Assembly (NCBI GenBank): GCA_045126895.1
Contig: JBGVPE010000020.1
Span: 60,306-124,305 of the forward strand
Direction of reading: 5' to 3'
DNA: 64,000 bases
Origin: Acutalibacteraceae bacterium
GTDB lineage: Bacteria; Bacillota; Clostridia; Oscillospirales; Acutalibacteraceae
The position numbers and the translations under genes are program-made. The notes under the pieces were generated by a model. The model made no database searches, was not told the DNA's origin, and worked only from the letters and a program-made list of their open reading frames with translations. Below are positions 49,348-61,288 of this stretch, one piece after another (position 1 is the stretch's first letter; each line of letters begins with the position of its first letter).

Positions 49348-51447
49348 TTAAAATTCCATTATAATCGGTTCATATTTTTCAATAATTTCATTGACAACCT
49401 GTAATGTATCTTCTTCACAAATTCCTGACGGTCTTGGAATATAATCTTTAATCCAATCATTTTCCATATACTCAATTCGTTTTGAAAGCAAAGTATCGGC
49501 ATACTCGTTCCTGTCATACGGACGGTGTTTTGACATATCTTTAAATTTTTTAGGTTTTTCAAAATATGATGCCATCATTCTGAAAAACACATACCATCTT
49601 TTTAGATAAAAATCTTTAACCATTCCGCCCCATTCACGCCAGTAAGTGTCAAACACCTGAGAGTTTTTAATAGGTCCGTAAGTCGTGTGATACATTAAAA
49701 AATTAACTTCAAGATTCTGTTTTATCTGTTTGGTATCACCTAACTGCCTTGCACCTTCAATCTGAGTGAAGAGATTTGTTGATTTAACAGTTTTAAGGAG
49801 TCTGTCCATATCCTGCGCAATTTCCATAAAAGCATTTGTAGTTTTTTCAAAAGGTTCTACAGCTTTATTTCTGAAGCACTCAACAGACTGTTGATAAATC
49901 GGGTAAAGAACATTGTTAAGAACCTGCTTCATAATCTGCTGAATATCAGATCTGAAAACATCATTCTTTTTTACATCATCAGCCATAACTTTTTTTACAA
50001 GAGAAAACAGTGCTTTATTGTCATAAGGCAATTCAAATGTATCTCCCGGTGCAGTGTGATAAACCTCTGTGCACGGTCTTGCACATATAGCTGATGCCTG
50101 ATTAAGTACACTTTTTTCATTATAGCAAAGCTTCTGTAAGCTAACTAAGAAATCACTATGCTGCTGAGTACCGTATCTGCATAATGAATAACGCTCTAAA
50201 AACTCTTCTATATTCAATTCACTGTCAGATGTTAAAACTTCACAAGCAAAGGAATAGTAAATCGGGTTTGAAGCGTCACTGTCAAAAAGTAGAGCTGAAC
50301 CAACTGCATTATCATACTTCTCTTTAGCTTTAAGATATGGGTTTTTGCTCAGGGCATTCATATTACCTGCAATTACAGTTCTGCCATTAAGGTTACCTCT
50401 GTAACCAACAACAAAATCGTTGCCGTTAAAACCGTCATATTTTAAGTAATCATCACCGTTTTCATCAATAATAACCATACCGTCAACTTTTGACGGATAG
50501 CTATTGATTGCGCTTGAATGAACAAACCAGGTTGCCTCACTGTCAAAATCCCTTATGAAGTTAATATACATAGCTATAGTTTTTTCAACAAAAGAGTTAA
50601 ATCCTTTGAAATTAACATCATAAAGCGGATCAAACAAATAATTATGAACCTCGCCTAAAAGCTCTTTTTGCTTTTCAAGATAAGCTTTCTGAAAAACTCC
50701 GATATGAATATCATCATTAGGTTCAATGGTCATAGCAGGTGGGAACTTGTTCCATACAGGTCGTTTAATCAAATCAGTTTTTGTGTAATTTCGTCTGAAG
50801 CTGAATGGTACAGTTGACATAAATCCCTGATGAACAGGGTTCATACCAAGTTCCTTTGCTCTATCGGTAACACGTCTGCCGATTTCAATCTTTTTATCAA
50901 AATACTCTTCACTGTAAATAGGAAGATATCCGAAAATGTTACCCGTTAACTGTCTATAATAAAAAGATGAACCTGCGATAAACTCAAGGGCATTTTCTTT
51001 TTTGAACCTGAATTCCATCAAAGCTTTATATAAAACGCCATCACTGCCTGTCAGAATTATCGGGGCATTCACACCGGTCATAGCCATAAAATCAAGTTCT
51101 TTTTCCCATCGGTCAAATCCCCATGAATCAATCTCACAGCCGTATCTTTCATAGGTGAACGACACTCTTAATTTCTGTAAAACGGTATTTTCAAGCTTCT
51201 CTGTAGGCAAAGGTGCTGATTTGATATAAGAAATATCGTAATCACCATTTGTAATCAGCACATTACAGTAGCTTTTTAAATAGCGGTAATAGCCCATCGC
51301 TTTAGCAATATCACTGCTGCCGGATATAACAATATTTTTATCCCTTGAAAAGACTTCATATCTGTCATAACCATTGTCAGCTTCACAATCTTCAAATATA
51401 AAAACATCTGCAATTTTAGGGGTATTTCTTAAAACTAAATCTAACAT
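49348..51447 (-). CDS. GH89 alpha-N-acetylglucosaminidase (NAGLU-like)
   Basis: 699 aa. NAGLU N-terminal domain pattern (ISGSSDIAKAMGYYRYLKSYC). TIM-barrel start WGFDRWEKELDFMAMTGVNAPI. All-helical C-terminal domain. No signal peptide or CBM. Confidence 0.8.
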   Translation of the reverse strand: MLDLVLRNTPKIADVFIFEDCEADNGYDRYEVFSRDKNIVISGSSDIAKAMGYYRYLKSYCNVLITNGDYDISYIKSAPLPTEKLENTVLQKLRVSFTYERYGCEIDSWGFDRWEKELDFMAMTGVNAPIILTGSDGVLYKALMEFRFKKENALEFIAGSSFYYRQLTGNIFGYLPIYSEEYFDKKIEIGRRVTDRAKELGMNPVHQGFMSTVPFSFRRNYTKTDLIKRPVWNKFPPAMTIEPNDDIHIGVFQKAYLEKQKELLGEVHNYLFDPLYDVNFKGFNSFVEKTIAMYINFIRDFDSEATWFVHSSAINSYPSKVDGMVIIDENGDDYLKYDGFNGNDFVVGYRGNLNGRTVIAGNMNALSKNPYLKAKEKYDNAVGSALLFDSDASNPIYYSFACEVLTSDSELNIEEFLERYSLCRYGTQQHSDFLVSLQKLCYNEKSVLNQASAICARPCTEVYHTAPGDTFELPYDNKALFSLVKKVMADDVKKNDVFRSDIQQIMKQVLNNVLYPIYQQSVECFRNKAVEPFEKTTNAFMEIAQDMDRLLKTVKSTNLFTQIEGARQLGDTKQIKQNLEVNFLMYHTTYGPIKNSQVFDTYWREWGGMVKDFYLKRWYVFFRMMASYFEKPKKFKDMSKHRPYDRNEYADTLLSKRIEYMENDWIKDYIPRPSGICEEDTLQVVNEIIEKYEPIIMEF

Positions 51448-51465: not shown

Positions 51466-52311
51466 TTATCTGTTTAAAATATCATTTATTGTAGTTAATC
51501 CTGTTACAATCTGTAATACTGCCAGACTGTCTGAGGAGTTGATTTTTCCGTTACGGTCAGTGTCTGCGGCTTCAAGCTTTTCTGAAGATAAGCTCAGAAT
51601 GCCTGTTGAATACTGCAAAATATTCAGCGCGTCACCTGAAGTAATGTTGCCGTCTGAATTTGTATCACCTGCATTGGTTATTTTAATACCGATATCAGCA
51701 TTAGTTAAATCAAAATTGATTGCTTCACCATAATCGTATCTTTTGCCGTCAAGCTTACCGTTATCTGTATAGCAAGCAAGATAAGTTTCACCAAAAGGAT
51801 TTGATGTGTTTCTGATTGATTTATCTGATAAATAAATGCTGCCGATATCATTATTTTTACCTTTTGCAATAAACCGCATATTGACTACCGATTCATTTAA
51901 TGAAGACGGAGCCACACTGCAATCAGCAGAAGTAGGTATCATATCAATTTTTAAGTGAGCTTCTTTATTACCCGATGCACTTTTCAGTGCAAGGTTACTA
52001 TATGTTTTGCAACAAGAATAAAATCTGCTGCTTGTATTCCAATTAAAAGAGTTATATTGAACGCCACCTGAAAATAAAATCTCAGTGGCAAAAGGACCAG
52101 CATAATAATCCTCATTCGTTTTTAAAAACAACGAAATATCTATTGTATCACCGTTATATAAATAAATAAAATCTTTATCTGTTTTTACATCTGAGCCGTT
52201 AACAGAGGCCTTCAAATCAATATCTGCATCATAGCGAGGCTGAGCAATAACAACTATCGGCAGAATCGCAATACAAACCGCCAACAAAACAATAATAAGC
52301 TTTCGTTTCAT
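51466..52311 (-). CDS. Secreted cohesin-like module + dockerin protein (P4)
   Basis: Signal peptide. The beta-rich module has GDTIDISLFLKTNEDYYAGPFATEILFS (cohesin-like strand pattern). C-terminal dockerin GDTNSDGNITSGDALNILQY...ADTDRNGKINSSDSLAVLQIVTG. Confidence 0.6.
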   Translation of the reverse strand: MKRKLIIVLLAVCIAILPIVVIAQPRYDADIDLKASVNGSDVKTDKDFIYLYNGDTIDISLFLKTNEDYYAGPFATEILFSGGVQYNSFNWNTSSRFYSCCKTYSNLALKSASGNKEAHLKIDMIPTSADCSVAPSSLNESVVNMRFIAKGKNNDIGSIYLSDKSIRNTSNPFGETYLACYTDNGKLDGKRYDYGEAINFDLTNADIGIKITNAGDTNSDGNITSGDALNILQYSTGILSLSSEKLEAADTDRNGKINSSDSLAVLQIVTGLTTINDILNR

Positions 52312-52330
52312 TATGTCAACCTCCTTATTT

Positions 52331-52363
52331 AAAAAATGGGGTCACAGGATAACCCGTGACCCC
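52331..52363 (-). terminator. Rho-independent terminator after P3
   Basis: GGGGTCAC(A)GG-ataa-CCCGTGACCCC. On the minus strand it is followed by TTTTTT. Confidence 0.8.
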
Positions 52364-52379
52364 TGAATGCTAAAGGGAA

Positions 52380-55300
52380 TTATTTAGAAGCTGTAACTGT
52401 TGCTGAGAAGCCGTCAACTGATGACCAACCGTCAGCTGTCTTGATGTTGAGAGTTACAGTGTTTTCGCCAACTGCATAGAACTTAGCATAAATATCATAT
52501 GTTGCTTTGCCGTCTGCAATTGTTGCATTTGCGAATGTCTTAAGAACTACACCGTTAACAACAACCTGAACTTTAAGTACGTCTGTACCAGTTACAACTG
52601 TAAGAGGAATTTCAGTGTACATTTTTGCTGTGTCAGCAATATCCATTGAGTATACTTCTGCATCATCTGTTGAATATTTGTAATCACAGATGTATGAGAG
52701 TGAAAGGTCTTCCCAACCTTCGTTGCCCTTAACGTTGAGGTAGTAAACGTCTGGGTTGATTGCAAGATCAAATGTCCAGATTTCATAAGCGATGTTTCTT
52801 GAAAGGTCGCTAACAACATTATTGTCTGCATCGTAGCTTACGATTTTACCTAATTCTCTTGCACGAGTTCTGTTAAGAGTAACTGTGTTGAGTTCGTTGT
52901 CTTTGTCAACGAAACGAAGTTTAACAGGTCTGCCTTCGATCTTAACTGTGAATGTGTTAGCAGCATAAGGAGTATCTGTGTAAGAAGCTTCCATTACTCT
53001 GCCTTCTGTTGGTTTAAGCTCGAGTTTGCCGATAGCTTCTGTGATAGCGTCTGCCATAGCGTCAACGTCAGCCTGTTTTGTGATGTCAAGGCCTTCAACT
53101 ACTGCTGCAACTGCATCTCTGAGAGCTGCAACTGATTTGTCAGTGTAGATTGAAAGGTCTGCTGGGATCTTACCTTTAGCTGCTTCAACTTTAGCGTAGT
53201 CAGCTGCTTTAACGTCGAGGTCTTTAACTGCTGCATTGATAGCTGCTGCAAAACCGTCAACTGTATCCTGCTGTGTTTCGCCAAGGCCGTAAACAACTGC
53301 ATCAACTGCATCGTCAACAACTTTGAGTGATTCTGTAGTGTAGATTGATCTGTCAGCAGGGATAGCTGCGATAGCTGCTTCAACTGCTGCATAGTTAGCA
53401 AGTTTTTCGAGGTCTGCGATAGCTGCATTGATAGCTGCTGCAAAACCGTCAACTGTTGTCTGTTCTGTCTTGTCAAGGCCTTCAACTACTGCTGCAAGAG
53501 CTTTTTCAAGTTTTGCCCATGAAGCATCTGTGTAGTCTTCTGCATTGAGAGCTGCTGCTGCATCTTCAGCTTCTGTTACTGCATCGTAATCAGCTGCTGC
53601 GATAACAAGCTGAGCTTTTGCTGTGTTAAGAGCGCTAGCTGCTGCTGCAACTACTGCTGCTGATGCGTTATCATCTGCATAAACTGACTCTGCGTTTGCA
53701 AGAGCCTGTGCATATACGCTCCAGTTAGAGTAGTAATCTGCTGTGTATTCTGGTTTAGCATCGATAGCTGCTTTAAGAGCTGTTTTGTCAGCTTTTTCTG
53801 CAAGGAGAGCAACTGCATTTACAAGATCTGCTGCTGCTGCGTTAAGAGCTGCCTGATCACCTGCTACTTCTGCTACTGCTTTAGCTGCATAAGCTGCTGC
53901 TTTAGCTGCCTCGTAAGCTGCAACTGAGTTTGGTGTGTAAGCGTCTGTGTCAGCTGGTTCCTGAGCTGTTGCCTGTTTCCATGCTGTGTAATCAAGAACG
54001 ATTGGTTTTGGATCAAGAGCATCGATAGCATCATAGATAGCTTCTGCTGCTGCATTAACAGCTGCCTGCTGTGATGAACCTGTTTCATCTCTGTCGAATA
54101 ACTGAGCTGCTGCTACTGCATCCTGGAGAGCATCATAAGATTCTTCTGTCCAATCATCAGCGTTTACGTCTGCTGCTTCTTCAAGTGCAGCGTCAAGACC
54201 TGTGAAGTTAGCTTTAGCCTCAAGAGCTGCTACTGCGCCTTCAAGAGTTGCTGCTGCGTTGTCAAGGTCTGCCTGAGTTGTAGCTGTTGCTACAGCTGCT
54301 TCTGCTGCTGCTTTAGCGCTTGTAGCTGCAGTAGCAGTTGATTTTGTGTAAGCTGAAAGGTCAGCCGGAACTGAACCGATAGCGTTGTTGATTCTTGTGT
54401 AGTTAAGAACAACTTTTTCTTCAAGGTTCTTAATAGCATCTGCAAGAGCATTAGCTGCTGCTGTAACAACTGTCTGGTCTGTTGACTCTTTAGCTTTTAC
54501 TGCATTGTTATAAGCTGTTACAACTGCTGCCCATGAATCTGATGTATATGCATCACCGTCAAGATCTTTATAGGCGTTGATTGCATTTTCAAGAGCTGTG
54601 TAGTCAACTGATGAACCACCTGCAACTTTGAATGTAAGAACCTGATTTTCAACAATGTGGCCTTCTTCAGGAATAGCATACATTGTGTCAATCCAGTCGC
54701 CTTCACCGTCGTCACAAACAAGGAAACCGTTGTTTGTCATAAGGATTGTACCAACTGCGCCAGGAGTTGCATCCGCTCTAACATATACAGGGAATGCATA
54801 GATATCCTCGTCAAGAGCTTCATAAAGTTCTCCGCCGTATTCGTCGTTCATCATTGTAACGTCGTACTGAACAACGATGTGGTTAACATGATGAGAAGCT
54901 TTCTGAGCTGCTGTCAAACCTTTTGCGTTCTGAACCCAGTTTGTTCTGTAGCTCTCAAGCATACGGCCCCAAGGTGCACCTGAAACTGTGCCGTCAGCAA
55001 ATGCCATAATCTGGCTGTCCTCGTTAACCCATGTTGCCTGAGTGATTGACATAGCAGATGTCATAAATATGTTTGAATCATAGTACCAGTCCTGAGAAAG
55101 AGTACCGATGTAAAGGCTGTCAGAAGCTTCTACATGTGTTGTAACCCAAACCATGTCACCAGGATTAACTTCGATTGGAGTTGTGTTGCCTGCTGCGTAA
55201 ACAGGGAGATCGTCTCTGCTTGATTTGTAAGCTGTTACGTCAGCACGCTGTGCTTTAATCTCAGCAGCTTTAACTGATGTGAGAACTTTGTTCTCTGCAT

Positions 55301-55508
55301 CAAGTGCAACAGATTCAGAAACAGCAGTACCTTCTTCTGTTTTATCTGTTGTGCCGACACTTTCCATAACCTGAGCACTAAGTGTCCAAGTTAATGTTTC
55401 AGAACCGTCAAGTACTTCATCGCGTTCTCTTGCAAATGATACTACTGCCATTGAAAGAACCATAGCAACAGCAAGTACAATGCTAAGAACTTTTTTGGTC
55501 ATTTTCAT
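52380..55508 (-). CDS. Large secreted or anchored protein (P3): cohesin-like N-terminal module, eight FIVAR-like helical repeats, two C-terminal beta modules
   Basis: Signal/anchor MKMTKKVLSIVLAVAMVLSMAVVSFA. NPGDMVWVTTHVEASDSLYIGTLSQDWYYDSNIF cohesin-like pattern. Ala-rich 64-70-aa repeats. No dockerin, LPXTG or SLH seen. Confidence 0.6.
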   Translation of the reverse strand: MKMTKKVLSIVLAVAMVLSMAVVSFARERDEVLDGSETLTWTLSAQVMESVGTTDKTEEGTAVSESVALDAENKVLTSVKAAEIKAQRADVTAYKSSRDDLPVYAAGNTTPIEVNPGDMVWVTTHVEASDSLYIGTLSQDWYYDSNIFMTSAMSITQATWVNEDSQIMAFADGTVSGAPWGRMLESYRTNWVQNAKGLTAAQKASHHVNHIVVQYDVTMMNDEYGGELYEALDEDIYAFPVYVRADATPGAVGTILMTNNGFLVCDDGEGDWIDTMYAIPEEGHIVENQVLTFKVAGGSSVDYTALENAINAYKDLDGDAYTSDSWAAVVTAYNNAVKAKESTDQTVVTAAANALADAIKNLEEKVVLNYTRINNAIGSVPADLSAYTKSTATAATSAKAAAEAAVATATTQADLDNAAATLEGAVAALEAKANFTGLDAALEEAADVNADDWTEESYDALQDAVAAAQLFDRDETGSSQQAAVNAAAEAIYDAIDALDPKPIVLDYTAWKQATAQEPADTDAYTPNSVAAYEAAKAAAYAAKAVAEVAGDQAALNAAAADLVNAVALLAEKADKTALKAAIDAKPEYTADYYSNWSVYAQALANAESVYADDNASAAVVAAAASALNTAKAQLVIAAADYDAVTEAEDAAAALNAEDYTDASWAKLEKALAAVVEGLDKTEQTTVDGFAAAINAAIADLEKLANYAAVEAAIAAIPADRSIYTTESLKVVDDAVDAVVYGLGETQQDTVDGFAAAINAAVKDLDVKAADYAKVEAAKGKIPADLSIYTDKSVAALRDAVAAVVEGLDITKQADVDAMADAITEAIGKLELKPTEGRVMEASYTDTPYAANTFTVKIEGRPVKLRFVDKDNELNTVTLNRTRARELGKIVSYDADNNVVSDLSRNIAYEIWTFDLAINPDVYYLNVKGNEGWEDLSLSYICDYKYSTDDAEVYSMDIADTAKMYTEIPLTVVTGTDVLKVQVVVNGVVLKTFANATIADGKATYDIYAKFYAVGENTVTLNIKTADGWSSVDGFSATVTASK
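53090..54620 (-). repeat. Tandem coding repeats (about eight units of 64-70 aa, FIVAR-like)
   Basis: Units such as ADYAKVEAAKGKIPADLSIYTDKSVAALRDAVAAVVEGLDITKQADVDAMADAITEAIGKLE. A 34-nt segment, CTGCATTGATAGCTGCTGCAAAACCGTCAACTGT, occurs identically at 53231 and 53423, giving a 192-nt period. Confidence 0.8.
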
Positions 55509-55568
55509 TACTGAATTTCCTCCTAAAAAATTTTTATTTCAAATAAGTTAGCTTATTTAAAACCAAAA

Positions 55569-56630
55569 TTACATTGTCTGGTCAAGATCTGCCAAACCTG
55601 CAGCTACTTTAGATAATGCAGTTGAGTCAGAAGCGTTGACCGCACCGGAACCGTCAACATCAGCTGCGATGTTGAAGATATCCTCTGTTATTTCACCTAA
55701 ACCTGCAGCAACCTTATTCAAGTCAGTTGAGTCAGATGCGTTGATAGCACCGTCACCATTAAGGTCACCGTAAATTAAGATTTTATAAGTGTCAAGTAAT
55801 CCACCGTTAGCAAATACTCTGACACCTGCGCCTGTGCCGAAACCACCTGCAGTACCTGTTGTAGCAAGAGGCTGAAGTGTTGCAGCACCAAGAGGCTGAA
55901 CATTAGCTAAAATTGTAGCTTTGCTCATTGTAAGACCGGCCCAGTTTTTGATTATCTTTTCTGAATAGTCGATGATAACCTGTGAGCCCGGATAAGTTGT
56001 AATACCATCTACAGCACCCTGGTTGATTTCAACATCAACGCCTTCGAATGAGAGGGTATTATCTACGCGACAAAGAGTTGTTGCGTCGGCAGGGTCAATA
56101 ACTGCCTGATTGTAGAAGAGTGTTGACTCTTCAGGAATAAAGATTGAACCTGTAGCACCGCCTGCAGTTGATTTTACCTGCAACTGGAATGAGAAGCACT
56201 TAACAGACTCAGCGCTGTTGAAGCTACCGATATTTGTTGATGTAACAGCAGCAGTCCACTGAACAAGAACACAACCGTAAGCTGATGGATCGTACTCTAC
56301 AGGATAGAGAGAATAATCGTTGCTTGTGTTAGCTTCAAGTGAGCCTTTGTAAGTAAGGCAATCATCATAAGCGGTCAATTTTATATTACCTGTTGATGGA
56401 AGTTCAAATACATCTGCACTGTAAAGAACAGGGAAACGCAAGCAAGTAGCATTGTAATTGTTTTTAAGGTAAACATTTACAGTAACTACATCGCCTGTTG
56501 AGTATGTAGATGAATCTGCCGCAACAGTATAAGTCATTGTACCATCAACGGCGAAAGCGGAGACAGCAAAAACAGAGAAAGCAAGAACTACAGCAAGAGC
56601 AATTGCTAAAATTCTTTTTGAAGTTTTCAT
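55569..56630 (-). CDS. Secreted cohesin-like module + dockerin adaptor protein (P2)
   Basis: Signal peptide ending AFA. GDVVTVNVYLKNNYNATCLRFPVLYSADVFELPS (cohesin-like). C-terminal dockerin GDLNGDGAINASDSTDLNKVAAGL...ADVDGSGAVNASDSTALSKVAAGL. Confidence 0.7.
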   Translation of the reverse strand: MKTSKRILAIALAVVLAFSVFAVSAFAVDGTMTYTVAADSSTYSTGDVVTVNVYLKNNYNATCLRFPVLYSADVFELPSTGNIKLTAYDDCLTYKGSLEANTSNDYSLYPVEYDPSAYGCVLVQWTAAVTSTNIGSFNSAESVKCFSFQLQVKSTAGGATGSIFIPEESTLFYNQAVIDPADATTLCRVDNTLSFEGVDVEINQGAVDGITTYPGSQVIIDYSEKIIKNWAGLTMSKATILANVQPLGAATLQPLATTGTAGGFGTGAGVRVFANGGLLDTYKILIYGDLNGDGAINASDSTDLNKVAAGLGEITEDIFNIAADVDGSGAVNASDSTALSKVAAGLADLDQTM

Positions 56631-56656
56631 CTGTATACCTCCTTAATTATCTGGGG

Positions 56657-56689
56657 ATATCCCGGGCAGGGAGTCCCTGCCCAAGATAT
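56657..56689 (-). promoter_or_regulatory. GC-rich intercistronic stem-loop between P1 and P2
   Basis: ATATC-cc-GGGCAGGGAGTCCCTGCCC-aa-GATAT. On the coding (minus) strand no U-run follows it. It lies in the 65-nt spacer just upstream of the P2 RBS (AAGGAGG). Confidence 0.6.
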
Positions 56690-56695
56690 TTAGAA

Positions 56696-59600
56696 TTAAC
56701 CTCTGTCAGCGTAGTTAATTTCTGCAAGACCTGCTGCAACTTTATCAAGAGCAGTAGCGTCAGATGCGTTAACGATAGCTGAGTTGTCCATATCAGCTGC
56801 GAAGTCAAATGCTGAGTCAGCTGTAGCGCTGAATTCTGCAAGACCTGCTGCAACCTTGTTAAGTACTGTTGAGTCAGATGCGTTAACTGTACCGTCACCG
56901 TTAAGGTCACCTGTAATAACAATTACATACTCATCGATAACATTACCGTTTGCATCAGAGATTGTGATTGTTGAACCTGTTGCGATAGCATCACATTCAA
57001 CTGTAGCATCACCTGTGATGTTGAAGTATTCAGCAACATCAGCAACTACATCTCCGGGGAATGCACCAAGAAGGAGTTTACCGAATGTTGTTTCTTCAAC
57101 AACGAGTGAGTAGCCGTTGTCGCCAGGGTTTGCGCCTGCGATTTCAACTACAACTTCATCACCGCTGCCGCTGCCGCTGCCACCTTCGCCCTTCATAAGT
57201 CTCTTCTGAGCTTCGATGAGCTGAACATAAGCTTCGTTGATCTTTGTCTGTCTTGGAGCTTCTTCATTGTTTACGCTTGTTGCAAAAGCAATAGCTCTTG
57301 AATAATTGTTCCAAGAATCTTCTGTGTAATCATCTTCGTTATAACCTGCTGCATTTGCATTAGCAACTGCGATGTTAAGGTTTGTCTTTAAGCTTGGAGT
57401 CTTAACAAGTCTGCCTGCATAAAGTGAAAGACGATGGTTTGTATAAGCAACTGAAAGTGAGTCAACAGGGCCGTATGTAAAGTCTTCGTAATCAACGATT
57501 TCTTCTTCGCCTGTTTCTTCATTTATAACAGTTTTGTAGATTTTTGCGCTTTCAACAAGGCCGTTAGCATCGTTACGAGCGCTTCTGTAGTTTTCATATG
57601 TGTAAGCTACATAGTCATCTTTACCAAAGTAGTTGAAGTTAGGAGCATCGTATTCAACGCCTTCTTCATTGCTTGGAGAGATGCTTTCAAGGAGATCGTA
57701 TGTGCTCTGTGCACCGCCGCCTGCAGCTGATGCTTCAAGAGTTTCGATAGCTGCCTCAAGAGATTCTGATACAGTCTTGAACTTCTTAGCATCACCTGAT
57801 GTTGCATTACAGAATGTAGCTGCTGTTCTCTTACCGTTGATAAGAGCTGAAGCTGCATCCATAGCTGCAAGGTAAGCTGTCCATGCTGCTGAATCAGTGT
57901 AGTCATATGCCTGACGCTGAGCATTAACTTCTGAATTAAAGAGTCCAGGAAGTCCAAAGTCATCATAAAGACAGATGTTACCCTGATAGGTAAGGTTAGT
58001 AGTGCCTACAGTAACACCAATGTTCTGATAATAACGTTTGAAACCGTTAGCTGAGAAAGCTTCTAATTTAGCTGCTTCAAGCTGCTCTTCTGTGTATTCA
58101 CCATAAGCTTCTTTGAACTTGAATGGTTCAATATCAGCCTGGAAGCCTGCTTTGATTTCAACTTCTTCTGTGTTAGCTTCCATAAATGAAAGTTTACCGA
58201 TTGAAGTTGCTGTTGTTGTAATTGCATAAGGTTTTACTGTAACTGCACCTGCGTTAGGATTGTTTTCATCCATTTCGTTGTTATTTTTAACACGAGATGA
58301 GAGATCATCCAAACCGCTGATATCAGTTCTGTAAAGGTTCATGTTACCGTCAACAATGCTTGCTGCTACGCCTGAAGCTGATTTAGCTGCTGTCTTAGCT
58401 TCGTCAGTATCAGTCTTAGAAAGACATGAATAGATACGAGCATCAAGAGGCTGAGATGTAAGTTTTGAACCGTCTTCAACAAGAACATCATAGTTGATTG
58501 TAAATACGATAGGCTGTGTACCTGTGAAAGAACCGCCAACTGTGAATGTTGTTGATTCACCACCGTCAAGAGTTGTCTGAGCAGGTGTTGAAACTGTTAC
58601 TGTTGAAACTGAAGATTTAACAGAGTTAATCTTGATAGCATAACGTGAATCCTGATGGAAACCTGATGCATCTGTATAACCTGTGTTAATACCTGATGAT
58701 GGGTTTGTGATTGTAACCTGGAAGTTTGGAGCTGTTGAAATATAGTAGAATGAATCAAGTGTAAATTCAGGAGCTTCAAATTCCTGTGGGTTTGTAAGGT
58801 CAAGGATAGGACAAACAATTGGAAGAACTGCAGCTGCAAGAGTTACTCTGTAGCTGTAAAGGTCAGTGAAGAGAGCGTTTACTGTACCAGCAAGGTTCTC
58901 TTTCTTGATGATGTCTTCAAGAGTTGTCATATTTGTAGCAAGAAGGTTCGGGAAAACAATGTTAATTGTTCTTGGAAGGAGGTTAAGGATAACCTGCTTG
59001 ATTGGTTTCTGAAGTTCTGAACCTTCAACCTCTGTTGTGAGGATTGAGATAAGACCATCAAAGTTAAGTGAGAGAAGGTTTTCAAAAATAACCTTTTTGA
59101 TTAACTCTTCAAAGTTAACTGTACCTGATGGGAAGAGAGAAGCGTCAAACCAGTTTCTGTTGAAGATTGTGAAAAGAATCTTGTCGATATTTTTCCAACC
59201 TGAGTCAGAAGTGCTGAGATTGATACCGCTGAGAAGACCTGCATACTTAGGAATAGCCCAGTTTGCAATCTGTGTTAATACGTCATCAATGCTTGTGCCG
59301 TATTCAATACCGATATCGAAGAGGTCGTTAAGAGCTTCTGCAGCATAGTCAGCAAGAACGTTGTAGATTGTATCTACAGAATCATTCGGATATACTGACA
59401 AGTCGCTGTAGTCTCTGCCAGGAAGGTCGATTGCTACGATACCTTTAACAGTGTAGTTAGCAACTTCTACAAGAGTATCTGCGCTTTCAGGGATCCATAC
59501 ACCGTCAACTGATGAGTTGATGATTGCACGAGCAACGTATGAAACAACCTGCATATCAGTCATAGCAGCAAGCTCTTCTGCAGTCTTAACTTCTACGAAT

Positions 59601-60706
59601 GATGCGAAGAATGTGTCACCTGTCTGAGCGAGAACTTCTCTACCGAATTTGATGATGTTAGGAACGATCTGGCTGTTTGGACCTGTTGACCAGTCAAAGC
59701 CGAGTTCATCAGAGATGACAACATTAACGATTGATGCGATAATGTTGTTAAGCTCACCCATGAATGTTACACCATCAGTGAATGTGTAATTCTGGAATGT
59801 AAAGTTACATGTACCCTCAGCTGTAAGGTTAAAGAACTTAGTATAACCTTCGATTGCGTCAGCATTATCAGCGAGCATATCATTGATAGCGCCGAGCCAT
59901 TTCTCATTAGCCATTGGAACGAGTAATTCGTTGTAAAGTACTTTAAGAAGGTTATCTACGAAGTCATAAGTTGAACCCTTTGAAATGTTTGTGTAACCTT
60001 CAAGTGCAGGAACTAAGCCTTCAACAAATGTTCCGTCTGCATCAACATAACCAACAACAAACTTGTCGATAAGATGCTGAGCCATATCGTCTACAGTTTC
60101 TGTGATTGTTTCAGGAGCGTCTTTTTCGTAAACAAGGTCATAAAGTAAACCTTTAACAAGCGGTGTTACGTCAAGAGGACCGCCAAGAAGGCCTTCAAGA
60201 AGAGGACCAACAAGTGAACCTAAGTCGATTGAACCGTCGATTACGCCTGTGAAGATACCTTTGTTGTCATAAAGGAACTCGAGCAAAGCATAAATTACCT
60301 GAAGGTCAGCGTCTGCTGTTTTTGCTGATCTACGTGGTTTTTCAAGTGCTGAAGCGTCTAATTTTGAAAGGTCGCCAAGCATTGGTCCGAACTGGTTCCA
60401 AAGGCTGCCTTTCAACAATTCCTGAACACTGTCAAGAGCTTTGTCGATTGATCTAAGGTCGAGATTACCAACAAAGATGTCGTCCGCTGTCAACATGATC
60501 TGTTCTTCGTTGAGCATACGGTCAACTTCGTCCAATGCTGCAGAAGCATACTGCTCTGTGGTAAGAACCGGCTTATCCATGCCATCATACTGGCCTGCGA
60601 TAGCTTCGTCTTTCCATGGTGCGTATGCACTTGCTGCGATTGCAACTGTTGAGAAAACCATTACTACTGCAAGAAGAACGCTGAGTAATTTTTTGGACTG
60701 TCTCAT
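56696..60706 (-). CDS. Large secreted dockerin-bearing protein of unknown function (P1, 1336 aa)
   Basis: Start at ATG 60706 behind GGAGG (MRQSKKLLSVLLAVVMVFSTVAIAASAYA); the track start is 60787. About 700 aa of unassigned, mostly helical domain, then beta-rich modules and FIVAR-like helices (YNEDDYTEDSWNNYSRAIAFA). C-terminal dockerin GDLNGDGTVNASDSTVLNKVAAGL...ADMDNSAIVNASDATALDKVAAGL. Confidence 0.7.
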   Translation of the reverse strand: MRQSKKLLSVLLAVVMVFSTVAIAASAYAPWKDEAIAGQYDGMDKPVLTTEQYASAALDEVDRMLNEEQIMLTADDIFVGNLDLRSIDKALDSVQELLKGSLWNQFGPMLGDLSKLDASALEKPRRSAKTADADLQVIYALLEFLYDNKGIFTGVIDGSIDLGSLVGPLLEGLLGGPLDVTPLVKGLLYDLVYEKDAPETITETVDDMAQHLIDKFVVGYVDADGTFVEGLVPALEGYTNISKGSTYDFVDNLLKVLYNELLVPMANEKWLGAINDMLADNADAIEGYTKFFNLTAEGTCNFTFQNYTFTDGVTFMGELNNIIASIVNVVISDELGFDWSTGPNSQIVPNIIKFGREVLAQTGDTFFASFVEVKTAEELAAMTDMQVVSYVARAIINSSVDGVWIPESADTLVEVANYTVKGIVAIDLPGRDYSDLSVYPNDSVDTIYNVLADYAAEALNDLFDIGIEYGTSIDDVLTQIANWAIPKYAGLLSGINLSTSDSGWKNIDKILFTIFNRNWFDASLFPSGTVNFEELIKKVIFENLLSLNFDGLISILTTEVEGSELQKPIKQVILNLLPRTINIVFPNLLATNMTTLEDIIKKENLAGTVNALFTDLYSYRVTLAAAVLPIVCPILDLTNPQEFEAPEFTLDSFYYISTAPNFQVTITNPSSGINTGYTDASGFHQDSRYAIKINSVKSSVSTVTVSTPAQTTLDGGESTTFTVGGSFTGTQPIVFTINYDVLVEDGSKLTSQPLDARIYSCLSKTDTDEAKTAAKSASGVAASIVDGNMNLYRTDISGLDDLSSRVKNNNEMDENNPNAGAVTVKPYAITTTATSIGKLSFMEANTEEVEIKAGFQADIEPFKFKEAYGEYTEEQLEAAKLEAFSANGFKRYYQNIGVTVGTTNLTYQGNICLYDDFGLPGLFNSEVNAQRQAYDYTDSAAWTAYLAAMDAASALINGKRTAATFCNATSGDAKKFKTVSESLEAAIETLEASAAGGGAQSTYDLLESISPSNEEGVEYDAPNFNYFGKDDYVAYTYENYRSARNDANGLVESAKIYKTVINEETGEEEIVDYEDFTYGPVDSLSVAYTNHRLSLYAGRLVKTPSLKTNLNIAVANANAAGYNEDDYTEDSWNNYSRAIAFATSVNNEEAPRQTKINEAYVQLIEAQKRLMKGEGGSGSGSGDEVVVEIAGANPGDNGYSLVVEETTFGKLLLGAFPGDVVADVAEYFNITGDATVECDAIATGSTITISDANGNVIDEYVIVITGDLNGDGTVNASDSTVLNKVAAGLAEFSATADSAFDFAADMDNSAIVNASDATALDKVAAGLAEINYADRG

Positions 60707-60978
60707 TATAAATGCACCTCCATAATATTTGCATTTTAAAAATGCAGTTTGCACATTAGCGGTTGTGCCTACCGAATTGGCAACCACTGTCGTCGCCGAG
60801 CCGATTGAGCGCCGTCAAGGCCACGCCTTGATGCTCAATCATCAATCGGCGATGGCTGCCGTTCTCTGCTCCGCGGCAGTGATATCAAACCATTCCCGCG
60901 AGAGCGGAGTTCTGGTGTTACGGTTTTATGCACAACAGCTGAGAATGCGCACGTACCCTATTACACCATTACTATGGT
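60707..60978 (-). promoter_or_regulatory. Long (~270 nt) GC-rich structured 5' leader of the P1 operon (unclassified cis-regulatory RNA candidate)
   Basis: It lies between a consensus-like promoter and the P1 start. By hand count, 60761-60960 is 56% GC against 29% for 61021-61120. There are at least five stable hairpins. Two helices have G-U pairs on the minus strand that would be A-C mismatches on the plus strand. Confidence 0.55.
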
Positions 60979-60984
60979 TAGTAT

Positions 60985-61013
60985 AAATATAACCCACCTT
61001 TTATGTTTTGTCA
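60985..61013 (-). promoter_or_regulatory. Sigma-A promoter of the cohesin/dockerin cluster
   Basis: Minus strand reads TTGACA (61008-61013), 17 nt, TATATT (60985-60990). Confidence 0.65.
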
Positions 61014-61288
61014 ATAAATTTTCATCAATTAAATTCGCGTTTTTATCAACTTTGTGCATAATACACATAATGCACATTGAGTTTTTGTAAACACCGATTT
61101 TATTATCTTTCACAACATGTGTAAAGGTATTTTCTTTACCTCCATAAACAATCAAAATTTCGGTAAAGTCTTATTGCTTTACAGACTCATTTTCGTATAC
61201 ATTTATAATATATAGAGTGTCAGATACACATATATTTGCTATAATTTTGTAACTTTAGCGCCAAAATATATAAAATATGGTAAAAACG

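Follow-up and report, generated by a model that had tools for sequence, protein, structure and literature searches.

What do neighbouring genes for cohesin- and dockerin-bearing proteins build when none of them contains a recognisable enzyme? We addressed this question for four consecutive minus-strand genes, P1-P4, in a 64,000-nucleotide stretch of DNA (hereafter the window) from an Acutalibacteraceae bacterium (assembly GCA_045126895.1, contig JBGVPE010000020.1, positions 60,306 to 124,305); coordinates below are window positions, and all features described lie on the minus strand. An earlier sequence-only reading had proposed a self-contained, non-enzymatic four-gene complex with no described function. 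Our analysis shows that the conserved operon is P1-P2-P3, and that three of its modules, the dockerins of P1 and P2 and the cohesin of P3, are hypervariable and matched to one another. The trio is probably, though far from certainly, an operon devoted to a surface assembly that one cohesin-dockerin lock holds together non-covalently.

All four open reading frames (ORFs) were recovered as first drawn, each beginning with a hydrophobic signal sequence. P1 (56696..60706, 1336 residues) combines a signal peptide, a helical head, a beta-sandwich, FIVAR-like helices and a dockerin. P2 (55569..56630, 353 residues), the putative adaptor, carries a signal peptide, a cohesin, an X module and a dockerin. 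P3 (52380..55508, 1042 residues) consists of a signal peptide, a cohesin, eight FIVAR repeats and a C-terminal module pair, with no dockerin, and P4 (51466..52311, 281 residues), which is accessory and clade-restricted, of a signal peptide, a cohesin-like module (residues 25-212) and a dockerin (residues 214-265). The dockerins of P1 (residues 1266-1322, 56741..56911), P2 (residues 287-340, 55611..55772) and P4 score 27.8, 33.4 and 40.3 bits against Pfam Dockerin_1 (PF00404; gathering score 22.9), and both copies of the duplicated ~22-residue segment with EF-hand-like calcium loops are visible in the sequences. The P1 and P2 dockerins share 63% identity and that of P4 belongs to a different sequence class, as had been noticed before. 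A dockerin hidden Markov model (HMM) matched no ORF of the window other than P1, P2 and P4 despite the many glycoside hydrolase (GH) genes, in agreement with the earlier observation that the glycosidases of the window lack dockerins. A word-index homologue search with the 76-residue P2 dockerin gave four candidates and no match, and is uninformative on the dockerins of other proteins.

FIVAR (PF07554; gathering score 29.2 bits) is matched above threshold by P3 (32.1 bits) and below it by P1 (24.8 bits), whose three-helix module (residues 1107-1170, 57197..57388) matches a profile of the P3 repeats at E = 2.5e-20. A single P3 repeat reaches the gathering score; an iterative search resolved exactly the eight that had been counted before (residues 302-829, 53022..54605; E = 3e-12 to 1e-23). 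The conserved C-terminal region of P3 (residues 840-1042, 52383..52991) has invariant Trp and Tyr residues in the alignment, no PDB match and no consistent Pfam match, and its sequence suggests a pair of beta modules. A C-terminal LPXTG motif or transmembrane segment was found neither in P1-P4 nor in the 30 P3 homologues examined, and the sole LPXTG-like string, LPSTG at P2 residue 77, lies inside the cohesin. Pfam gave no SLH match in P1-P4, and Pfam and NCBIfam, together with a PDB structure search of the P1 head, detected no catalytic domain in these proteins; NCBIfam added nothing to Pfam. The reported lack of catalytic motifs, LPXTG signals and SLH repeats therefore stands.

The cohesin modules escape the standard profile. 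Pfam Cohesin (PF00963) had no match at E <= 0.1 in any window protein, and sequence and profile searches of the PDB (with all proteins and with profiles of the P3 N- and C-terminal and P4 N-terminal modules) returned dockerin and FIVAR matches only. An AlphaFold2 model of P2, built on 33 homologues with a mean predicted local distance difference test score (pLDDT) of 86, has the nine-stranded beta-sandwich (jelly-roll) fold of cohesins. Foldseek comparison of this model with the PDB gave 93 matches at E <= 0.001; cohesins took 49 of the top 50 places and a pilin the remaining one, and the best match was the ScaC cohesin of Ruminococcus flavefaciens (5lxv_A, E = 5e-9). The cohesin-X-dockerin (Coh-X-Doc) fragments of CipA, 3kcp and 4fl4, align to the model over ~355 columns. 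P2 had been described as a cohesin plus a dockerin; both are present (cohesin at residues 27-200, 56031..56552), but a beta 'X' module (residues 205-285, 55776..56018), visible as strands in the model and in the Coh-X-Doc alignment, lies between them.

The N-terminal module of P3 (residues 85-300, 54609..55256) aligned to the P2 cohesin in hhalign with 97% probability (E = 3e-11), and the P4 N-terminal module aligned to that of P3, again with 97% probability (E = 1e-11), whereas the direct P2-P4 comparison was weak. HMM cross-matches agree with the homology of the three. The P3 and P4 modules thus indirectly appear to share the cohesin fold, through homology to P2 and P3, respectively. Moreover, weak sub-threshold Pfam Cohesin matches occur in 15 of 33 P2-family members (best E = 7e-4), and the P2-cohesin HMM matches two modules in each third gene of two outlier loci of the survey described below, L040 and L044 (E ~1e-26); those cohesins pass the Pfam threshold (32.0 and 38.9 bits vs 24.1). 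The Pfam Cohesin model misses the clade found here, and Pfam-based surveys therefore under-count such systems. P2, P3 and P4 have one cohesin-like module apiece, and the cluster contains no multi-cohesin scaffoldin.

To define the conserved unit, we scanned one genome per species and recovered 38 loci, all from uncultured gut Acutalibacteraceae, Oscillospiraceae or Clostridia sampled from deer, goat, sheep, cattle, horse and human. The order P1-P2-P3 is kept in 32 of these 38 species-level loci, and the trio is found in at least two unrelated genomic neighbourhoods. P4 lies beyond a terminator, is restricted to a single clade and does not co-vary with the matched set; therefore, the conserved operon comprises P1-P2-P3, and the proposed four-gene unit was not upheld. 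Outlier lineages carry a different gene after P1-P2. In L040 (11144-14191) and L044 (11101-14022) the third protein has two cohesins and a dockerin. In L042 (8679-16300) Pfam resolves it into 13 Flg_new repeats that precede one P4-type module plus a dockerin, which rules out an initial count of seven P4-type cohesins in this locus; the next protein has three Pfam cohesins. L043 (14358-20441) keeps a P3-like third gene and encodes a 2027-residue Metallophos protein with a dockerin further downstream.

Within the operon, the dockerins of P1 and P2 diversify together with the P3 cohesin. The P2 dockerin of the same genome is the best match to the P1 dockerin in 27 of 36 genomes. Own-genome pairs score 164 on average; when the pairings are permuted the mean is 90 +/- 5, and orthologous dockerins taken from distant genomes score 63-81. 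Between L008 and L009, the P1 head, P2 cohesin and P3 C-terminus are 90-96% identical, whereas the two dockerins and the P3 cohesin are 33-43% identical. Between L008 and L010 the relation is inverted, with 69-87% for the same three protein bodies and 81-94% for the dockerins and P3 cohesin. The trees are discordant: L008 is nearest L009 by protein bodies and nearest L010 by the three variable modules. L010 and L019 show the first pattern again, with the P1 head and P2 cohesin at 93-95%, the P3 C-terminus at 66% and the three modules at 34-45%.

The same boundaries are visible in DNA. In the L008/L009 comparison, the P1 body and the P2 cohesin plus X module are 91-97% identical. Identity falls to 51-57% in the P1 dockerin and to 44-63% over the stretch that begins with the P2 dockerin, includes the N-terminus of P3 and ends with its cohesin, and the stalk and C-terminus of P3 are again 84-97% identical; the breakpoints between L010 and L019 are identical. 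Among 37 near-clade P2 proteins from metagenomes, which include 19 dockerin types, median identity is 79% for the body and 44% for the dockerin. Bodies share at least 85% identity in 142 pairs, and in 70 of these the dockerins share less than 50%.

Partial Mantel tests over 27 genomes, with baseline divergence removed, revealed correlations of P2 dockerin with P3 cohesin (r = 0.66, p = 0.0005), P1 dockerin with P2 dockerin (r = 0.58, p = 0.0005) and P1 dockerin with P3 cohesin (r = 0.40, p = 0.0005). The P2 cohesin, which is conserved and tracks the species tree, gave r = 0.06 (p = 0.17) with the P1 dockerin, r = 0.14 (p = 0.03) with the P2 dockerin and r = 0.18 (p = 0.02) with the P3 cohesin. 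Gene conversion could have caused the likeness of the P1 and P2 dockerins; it is insufficient as an explanation, because the non-homologous P3 cohesin varies along with them. Since it co-varies with both dockerins beyond what gene conversion would produce, we infer that the single cohesin of P3 is their cognate receptor. The P2 cohesin would bind a different, conserved partner.

The observed modules, operon, conservation and co-diversification suggest the following model of binding, topology, anchoring and cargo function. P3 would be the stalk, in which the cohesin at the N-terminus is followed by a rod of eight three-helix FIVAR modules and then by an aromatic-rich C-terminal module pair; this pair may fix the stalk to the cell envelope as an anchor, or to a glycan or other substrate as a targeting device. 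Because near-identical dockerins share the single cohesin of P3, P1 and P2 would compete for it, and each stalk would hold either P1 or P2. P1 would be the cargo, displaying its large helical head, and P2 a minimal Coh-X-Doc adaptor whose own conserved cohesin recruits a further dockerin protein. By changing the P3 cohesin and the two dockerins jointly, close species may keep secreted subunits for their own stalks. P4 would be a later, clade-specific Coh-Doc adaptor with partners elsewhere.

The AlphaFold2 model of P1 covers residues 1-780 (mean pLDDT 79) and contains an all-helical block of ~590 residues (residues 47-634, 58805..60568; pLDDT mostly 80-90), followed by a beta-sandwich (residues 647-765, 58412..58768) assigned from model secondary structure, with Ig-like matches only. 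The N-terminal domain of ~700 residues that could not be assigned before is thus still one for which we found no relative, but it divides into these two parts. Against the PDB, Foldseek gave for the head a best E of 9e-4 at a TM score of 0.10, which is alpha-solenoid noise; the confident matches of the model span ~110-145 columns and correspond to the beta-sandwich. The viral structure library BFVD held no relative of the head, and Pfam at E <= 1 found nothing recurrent in the head of 31 distant family members. The suggestion that this domain might prove to be a known CAZyme (carbohydrate-active enzyme) or protease was accordingly not borne out by the Pfam, PDB and BFVD searches.

An exhaustive profile-free search placed the head in 230 representative clusters, always N-terminal in proteins of 1,000-3,100 residues. 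A dockerin is present in 21 of 31 diverse members, FIVAR in 13 and a catalytic domain in none; some distant members bear Listeria-Bacteroides repeats. Among 115 long members, 50 end in a dockerin-type calcium loop and none in a sortase signal. That members mostly end in a dockerin counts in favour of a cargo role. Residues conserved across the family cluster within the first 210 positions (D59, D62, S86, D112, R126, D134, G163 and D206), and many distant homologues match only the first subdomain (residues 47-215, window ~60062-60568), which may bind a metal or form an active site. For the head as a whole, ligand binding or adhesion is the most likely role, and that of a new enzyme is less likely. 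The description of the complex as non-enzymatic holds insofar as no enzyme module is recognisable; it is unproven in view of the invariant acidic residues of the head.

Several points weigh against the assembly as we propose it. P3 has no known anchoring motif that would show which of its ends faces the cell. The P2 cohesin has no identifiable partner in the cluster, and the cohesin folds of P3 and P4 rest on profile homology rather than on a model. The invariant Asp, Arg and Ser residues of the head are also compatible with an active site. Furthermore, the P2 dockerin and P3 cohesin are contiguous, and co-transfer of adjacent DNA may partly explain their co-diversification.

These points have to be weighed together with other explanations of the locus. 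The cluster may be the scaffoldin core of a larger enzyme complex of the amylosome or mucinolysome kind, in which the main task of the P2 and P4 cohesins, and possibly of the P3 cohesin, is to dock CAZymes or peptidases from elsewhere in the genome, and P1 is one of many cargoes. We regard this as a serious possibility, but not the probable one: the P2 cohesin, P4 cohesin and P4 dockerin indeed lack a co-varying partner in the cluster, relatives of the same family build such systems (Limousia, PMC12997984; Ruminococcus bromii, PMC4611034), and the neighbours in outlier loci include multi-cohesin scaffoldins and the Metallophos-dockerin protein. However, the 64-kb window has no other dockerin for all its GH genes, each protein has a single cohesin, and the P3 cohesin tracks two operon dockerins, which is hard to reconcile with many unlinked dockerins having to follow. 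The P2 cohesin, P4 cohesin and P4 dockerin, having no identifiable partner within the cluster, likely link to proteins encoded elsewhere. Self-containment, as first proposed, would then apply to the P3 cohesin with the P1 and P2 dockerins, as indicated by co-diversification, and probably not to these three modules. A fully self-contained four-protein adhesive fibre, in which P2 polymerises head-to-tail from a root on P3 and is capped by P1, is improbable. The Coh-X-Doc architecture of P2 would permit chains and self-recognition has a precedent in R. bromii Amy4 (PMC4611034), but with a conserved P2 cohesin and a hypervariable P2 dockerin no cognate pair between the two is expected, and P4 falls outside the conserved unit. 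We rejected P2 self-polymerisation as the main model on the grounds that the variation of the dockerins is not mirrored in the P2 cohesin.

The head bears on a further alternative, that it is an enzyme of new fold, acting for example on glycan or cell wall, and that the operon serves to display it. Known systems usually place dockerins on enzymes, and the conservation of the head over 230 representative clusters, with invariant or near-invariant polar residues (D59, D62, S86, D112, R126, D134 and D206), would suit a catalyst; yet the head has no relative in Pfam, NCBIfam, PDB or BFVD, the family members examined have no recognisable catalytic partner domain, and its irregular helices do not form an (alpha/alpha)6 toroid. 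On this balance we consider an enzymatic head unlikely, though well worth keeping in mind. Far more remote is the notion that the cohesin-like modules are beta-sandwiches of some other kind, with no relation to cohesins, and that the dockerins serve as mere calcium-binding stabilisers that pair with nothing. It could appeal to the sub-threshold Pfam Cohesin scores of every window protein and to the P3 and P4 module profiles, which find nothing among PDB sequences, but it would leave the dominance of cohesins among the top P2 structural matches, the HMM bridge to Pfam-positive cohesins and the module-specific co-diversification with dockerins without an explanation. The modules named cohesin-like in the sequence-only reading are thus best taken as genuine, in P2 by the structure model and in P3 and P4 by profile-profile homology.

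The sequence-only reading had named no described function for a non-catalytic cohesin-dockerin complex, but clusters of this sort have been described, among them the scaC-scaA-scaB-cttA-scaE cluster of R. flavefaciens (PMC4081043). There, the single cohesin of ScaE anchors the scaffoldin ScaB and the non-catalytic cellulose-binding adhesin CttA (PMC4081043), adaptors made of one cohesin and one dockerin occur commonly, and strains differ in the cluster (PMC4081043, PMC5429695). By analogy, the binding of ScaB and CttA by ScaE would be the closest in logic to the arrangement that we propose. Both sets consist of clustered non-catalytic cohesin and dockerin genes and include bimodular Coh+Doc adaptors. 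In R. flavefaciens one single-cohesin protein receives two proteins with similar dockerins, and co-diversification strongly suggests the same for P3. Of the two dockerin proteins in each set, one bears a cohesin itself and serves as scaffoldin or adaptor, whereas the other would bind without being an enzyme, the role proposed for P1. The best structural match of the P2 cohesin, that of ScaC, adds to the likeness. In contrast, the cohesin region has no sequence homology to PDB chains, so that similarity to the ScaE/ScaB/CttA system is at the fold level only; the single-cohesin protein lacks a sortase signal; there is no multi-cohesin scaffoldin; a FIVAR stalk stands where the other system has short linkers; a helical domain without known relative, rather than carbohydrate-binding modules, forms the cargo; and the host is not known as cellulolytic. 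The locus is a minimal sca-like scaffoldin operon, set apart by a large cargo domain with no known fold relative and by a co-diversifying lock-and-key set.

Other systems resemble the operon in part. The mucinolysome of Limousia (PMC12997984) is likewise a non-cellulose cohesin-dockerin system of gut Acutalibacteraceae with genomes rich in GH families for host or plant glycans. It differs in that its scaffoldins carry several cohesins detectable by Pfam, up to 22 of its GHs bear dockerins and one scaffoldin has an LPxTG anchor; in our locus the cohesins occur singly, no GH of the window bears a dockerin and LPxTG is absent. The amylosome of R. bromii (PMC4611034) belongs to the same family and has single-cohesin scaffoldins, including Sca3 with X25 binding modules, which the P3 C-terminus would resemble in a targeting role; it also combines cohesin and dockerin in one protein (Amy4) and includes many dockerin proteins without assigned function. 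However, its cohesins dock GH13 amylases, Sca2 bears a sortase signal, and the scaffoldin genes are not reported (PMC4611034) as a dedicated operon with matched dockerins. Limousia, Anaeromassilibacillus and R. bromii genomes are not among the 38 loci. Toxin complexes of Clostridium perfringens use cohesin-dockerin pairs with FIVAR-dockerin dyads (PMC12997984; references within 10.1101/2020.07.17.206995). They share with our locus a non-cellulosomal pairing, one cohesin per protein and a FIVAR module beside the dockerin, and their cohesins 2w1n and 2jh2 are among the P2 structural matches; both of their partners are glycoside hydrolases or toxins, whereas no partner here has a catalytic domain. 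Tandem FIVAR modules also occur in the adhesins Ebh and Embp (10.1101/2020.07.17.206995). The features by which cellulosomes, amylosomes and mucinolysomes are recognised, namely a multi-cohesin scaffoldin, dockerins borne by CAZymes (within the window) and an SLH or sortase anchor, are absent from the locus. We found no open-access paper on the P1-P2-P3 operon, on the family of the P1 head or on hypervariable cohesins and dockerins that vary as a matched set.

In gut Oscillospirales, cohesin-dockerin assembly extends beyond enzyme complexes to a compact operon that is conserved in many species and lacks a recognisable enzyme. Its matched hypervariable modules may allow binding partners to be assigned from sequence alone. 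Co-diversification suggests that binding specificity itself is selected between sister species. We tentatively go one step further, to an idea that is more likely wrong than right: the operon may encode a privatised lock-and-key fibre, in which the non-enzymatic P3 stalk captures the P1 tip, with its helical head of new fold, and the P2 adaptor of its own species, the interface is under diversifying selection or exchanged as a cassette between close relatives, and sister species living in the same gut cannot share subunits. If so, nature would offer many orthogonal cohesin-dockerin pairs arrayed on a single conserved chassis. Some 19 or more natural dockerin types, matched by their cognate cohesins on a scaffold that hardly differs otherwise, would supply orthogonal protein connectors for designer complexes.

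Transcription signals delimit the three-gene unit. A promoter, structured leader and terminator of its own had been ascribed to the cluster, and all three are present and conserved in related loci. The sigma-70-type promoter TTGACA-17-TATATT (60986..61014) matches 11 of 12 consensus positions, and both boxes are kept in the aligned leaders of both clades. It is followed by a structured 5' leader of ~270 nucleotides (60707..60980) with a minimum free energy of -110.8 kcal/mol (z = -6.6 vs shuffles). At its predicted 5' end lies the hairpin ACCAT-AGTA-ATGGT (60965-60978), conserved across both clades, and upstream of P1 a GGAGGTG ribosome-binding site is invariant across the aligned leaders of both. 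A GTG-extended P1 ORF starting at 60787 is an artefact that overlaps the leader; homologues and the invariant GGAGGTG show that translation starts at the ATG at 60706. Leaders are GC-enriched and structured in most related loci (L008-L041); a few of their helices covary, and the covariation has few independent events behind it. An Rfam scan of the region, including the leader, gave no match. 5'-terminal stem-loops stabilise mRNAs in Firmicutes, and by this analogy the leader probably supports high, stable expression; its role may be to stabilise the mRNA, or it may act as a cis-regulatory RNA of a kind not yet described. The intrinsic terminator after P3 (52338..52363) has an 11-bp stem with 8 GC pairs and a T-run, and an equivalent hairpin and T-run occurs in 24 of 25 related loci checked, L020 having the hairpin without a T-run.

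P4 is followed, 18 nucleotides downstream, by a GH89 (NAGLU) gene (49348..51447) without signal peptide, which lies outside the proposed assembly and is given for context only. P4 followed by GH89 occurs in the near clade only, at 10 loci, and the P4-GH89-GerA order is kept in 10 related genomes. The Shine-Dalgarno sequence of P4 starts 5 nucleotides after the T-run of the P3 terminator (window 52311-52363), leaving no room for a promoter, and the same arrangement is seen in seven near-clade loci (L008-L011, L019; the gap in L013 is slightly larger, ~8 nucleotides). Because this sequence nearly abuts the T-run, P4 and GH89 can only be expressed via terminator read-through or from a promoter inside the P3 3' end. 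A promoter-like site at 52319-52292 overlaps the P4 ribosome-binding site and start codon and was taken as chance. P4 is probably expressed together with the cytoplasmic GH89; a functional link between this alpha-N-acetylglucosaminidase and the surface proteins was not found.

The two modules of P4 evolve jointly, following neither the cassette pattern nor, cleanly, the species tree. We considered P4 as a member of the matched set and rejected it for lack of co-variation with the P1 dockerin, P2 dockerin and P3 cohesin. It seems to be the entire P4 gene that is exchanged, and separately from the P1/P2/P3 cassette. Between L008 and L009, whose operons are otherwise ~95% identical, the whole P4 gene is just 59-66% identical (L008:14789-15539); between L010 and L019 it is 83-91% identical. 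Finally, the G+C content of the cluster (window 52000-58000) is 0.42-0.43 compared with 0.36-0.40 in the flanks, which probably reflects its Ala- and Gly-rich repeat proteins.

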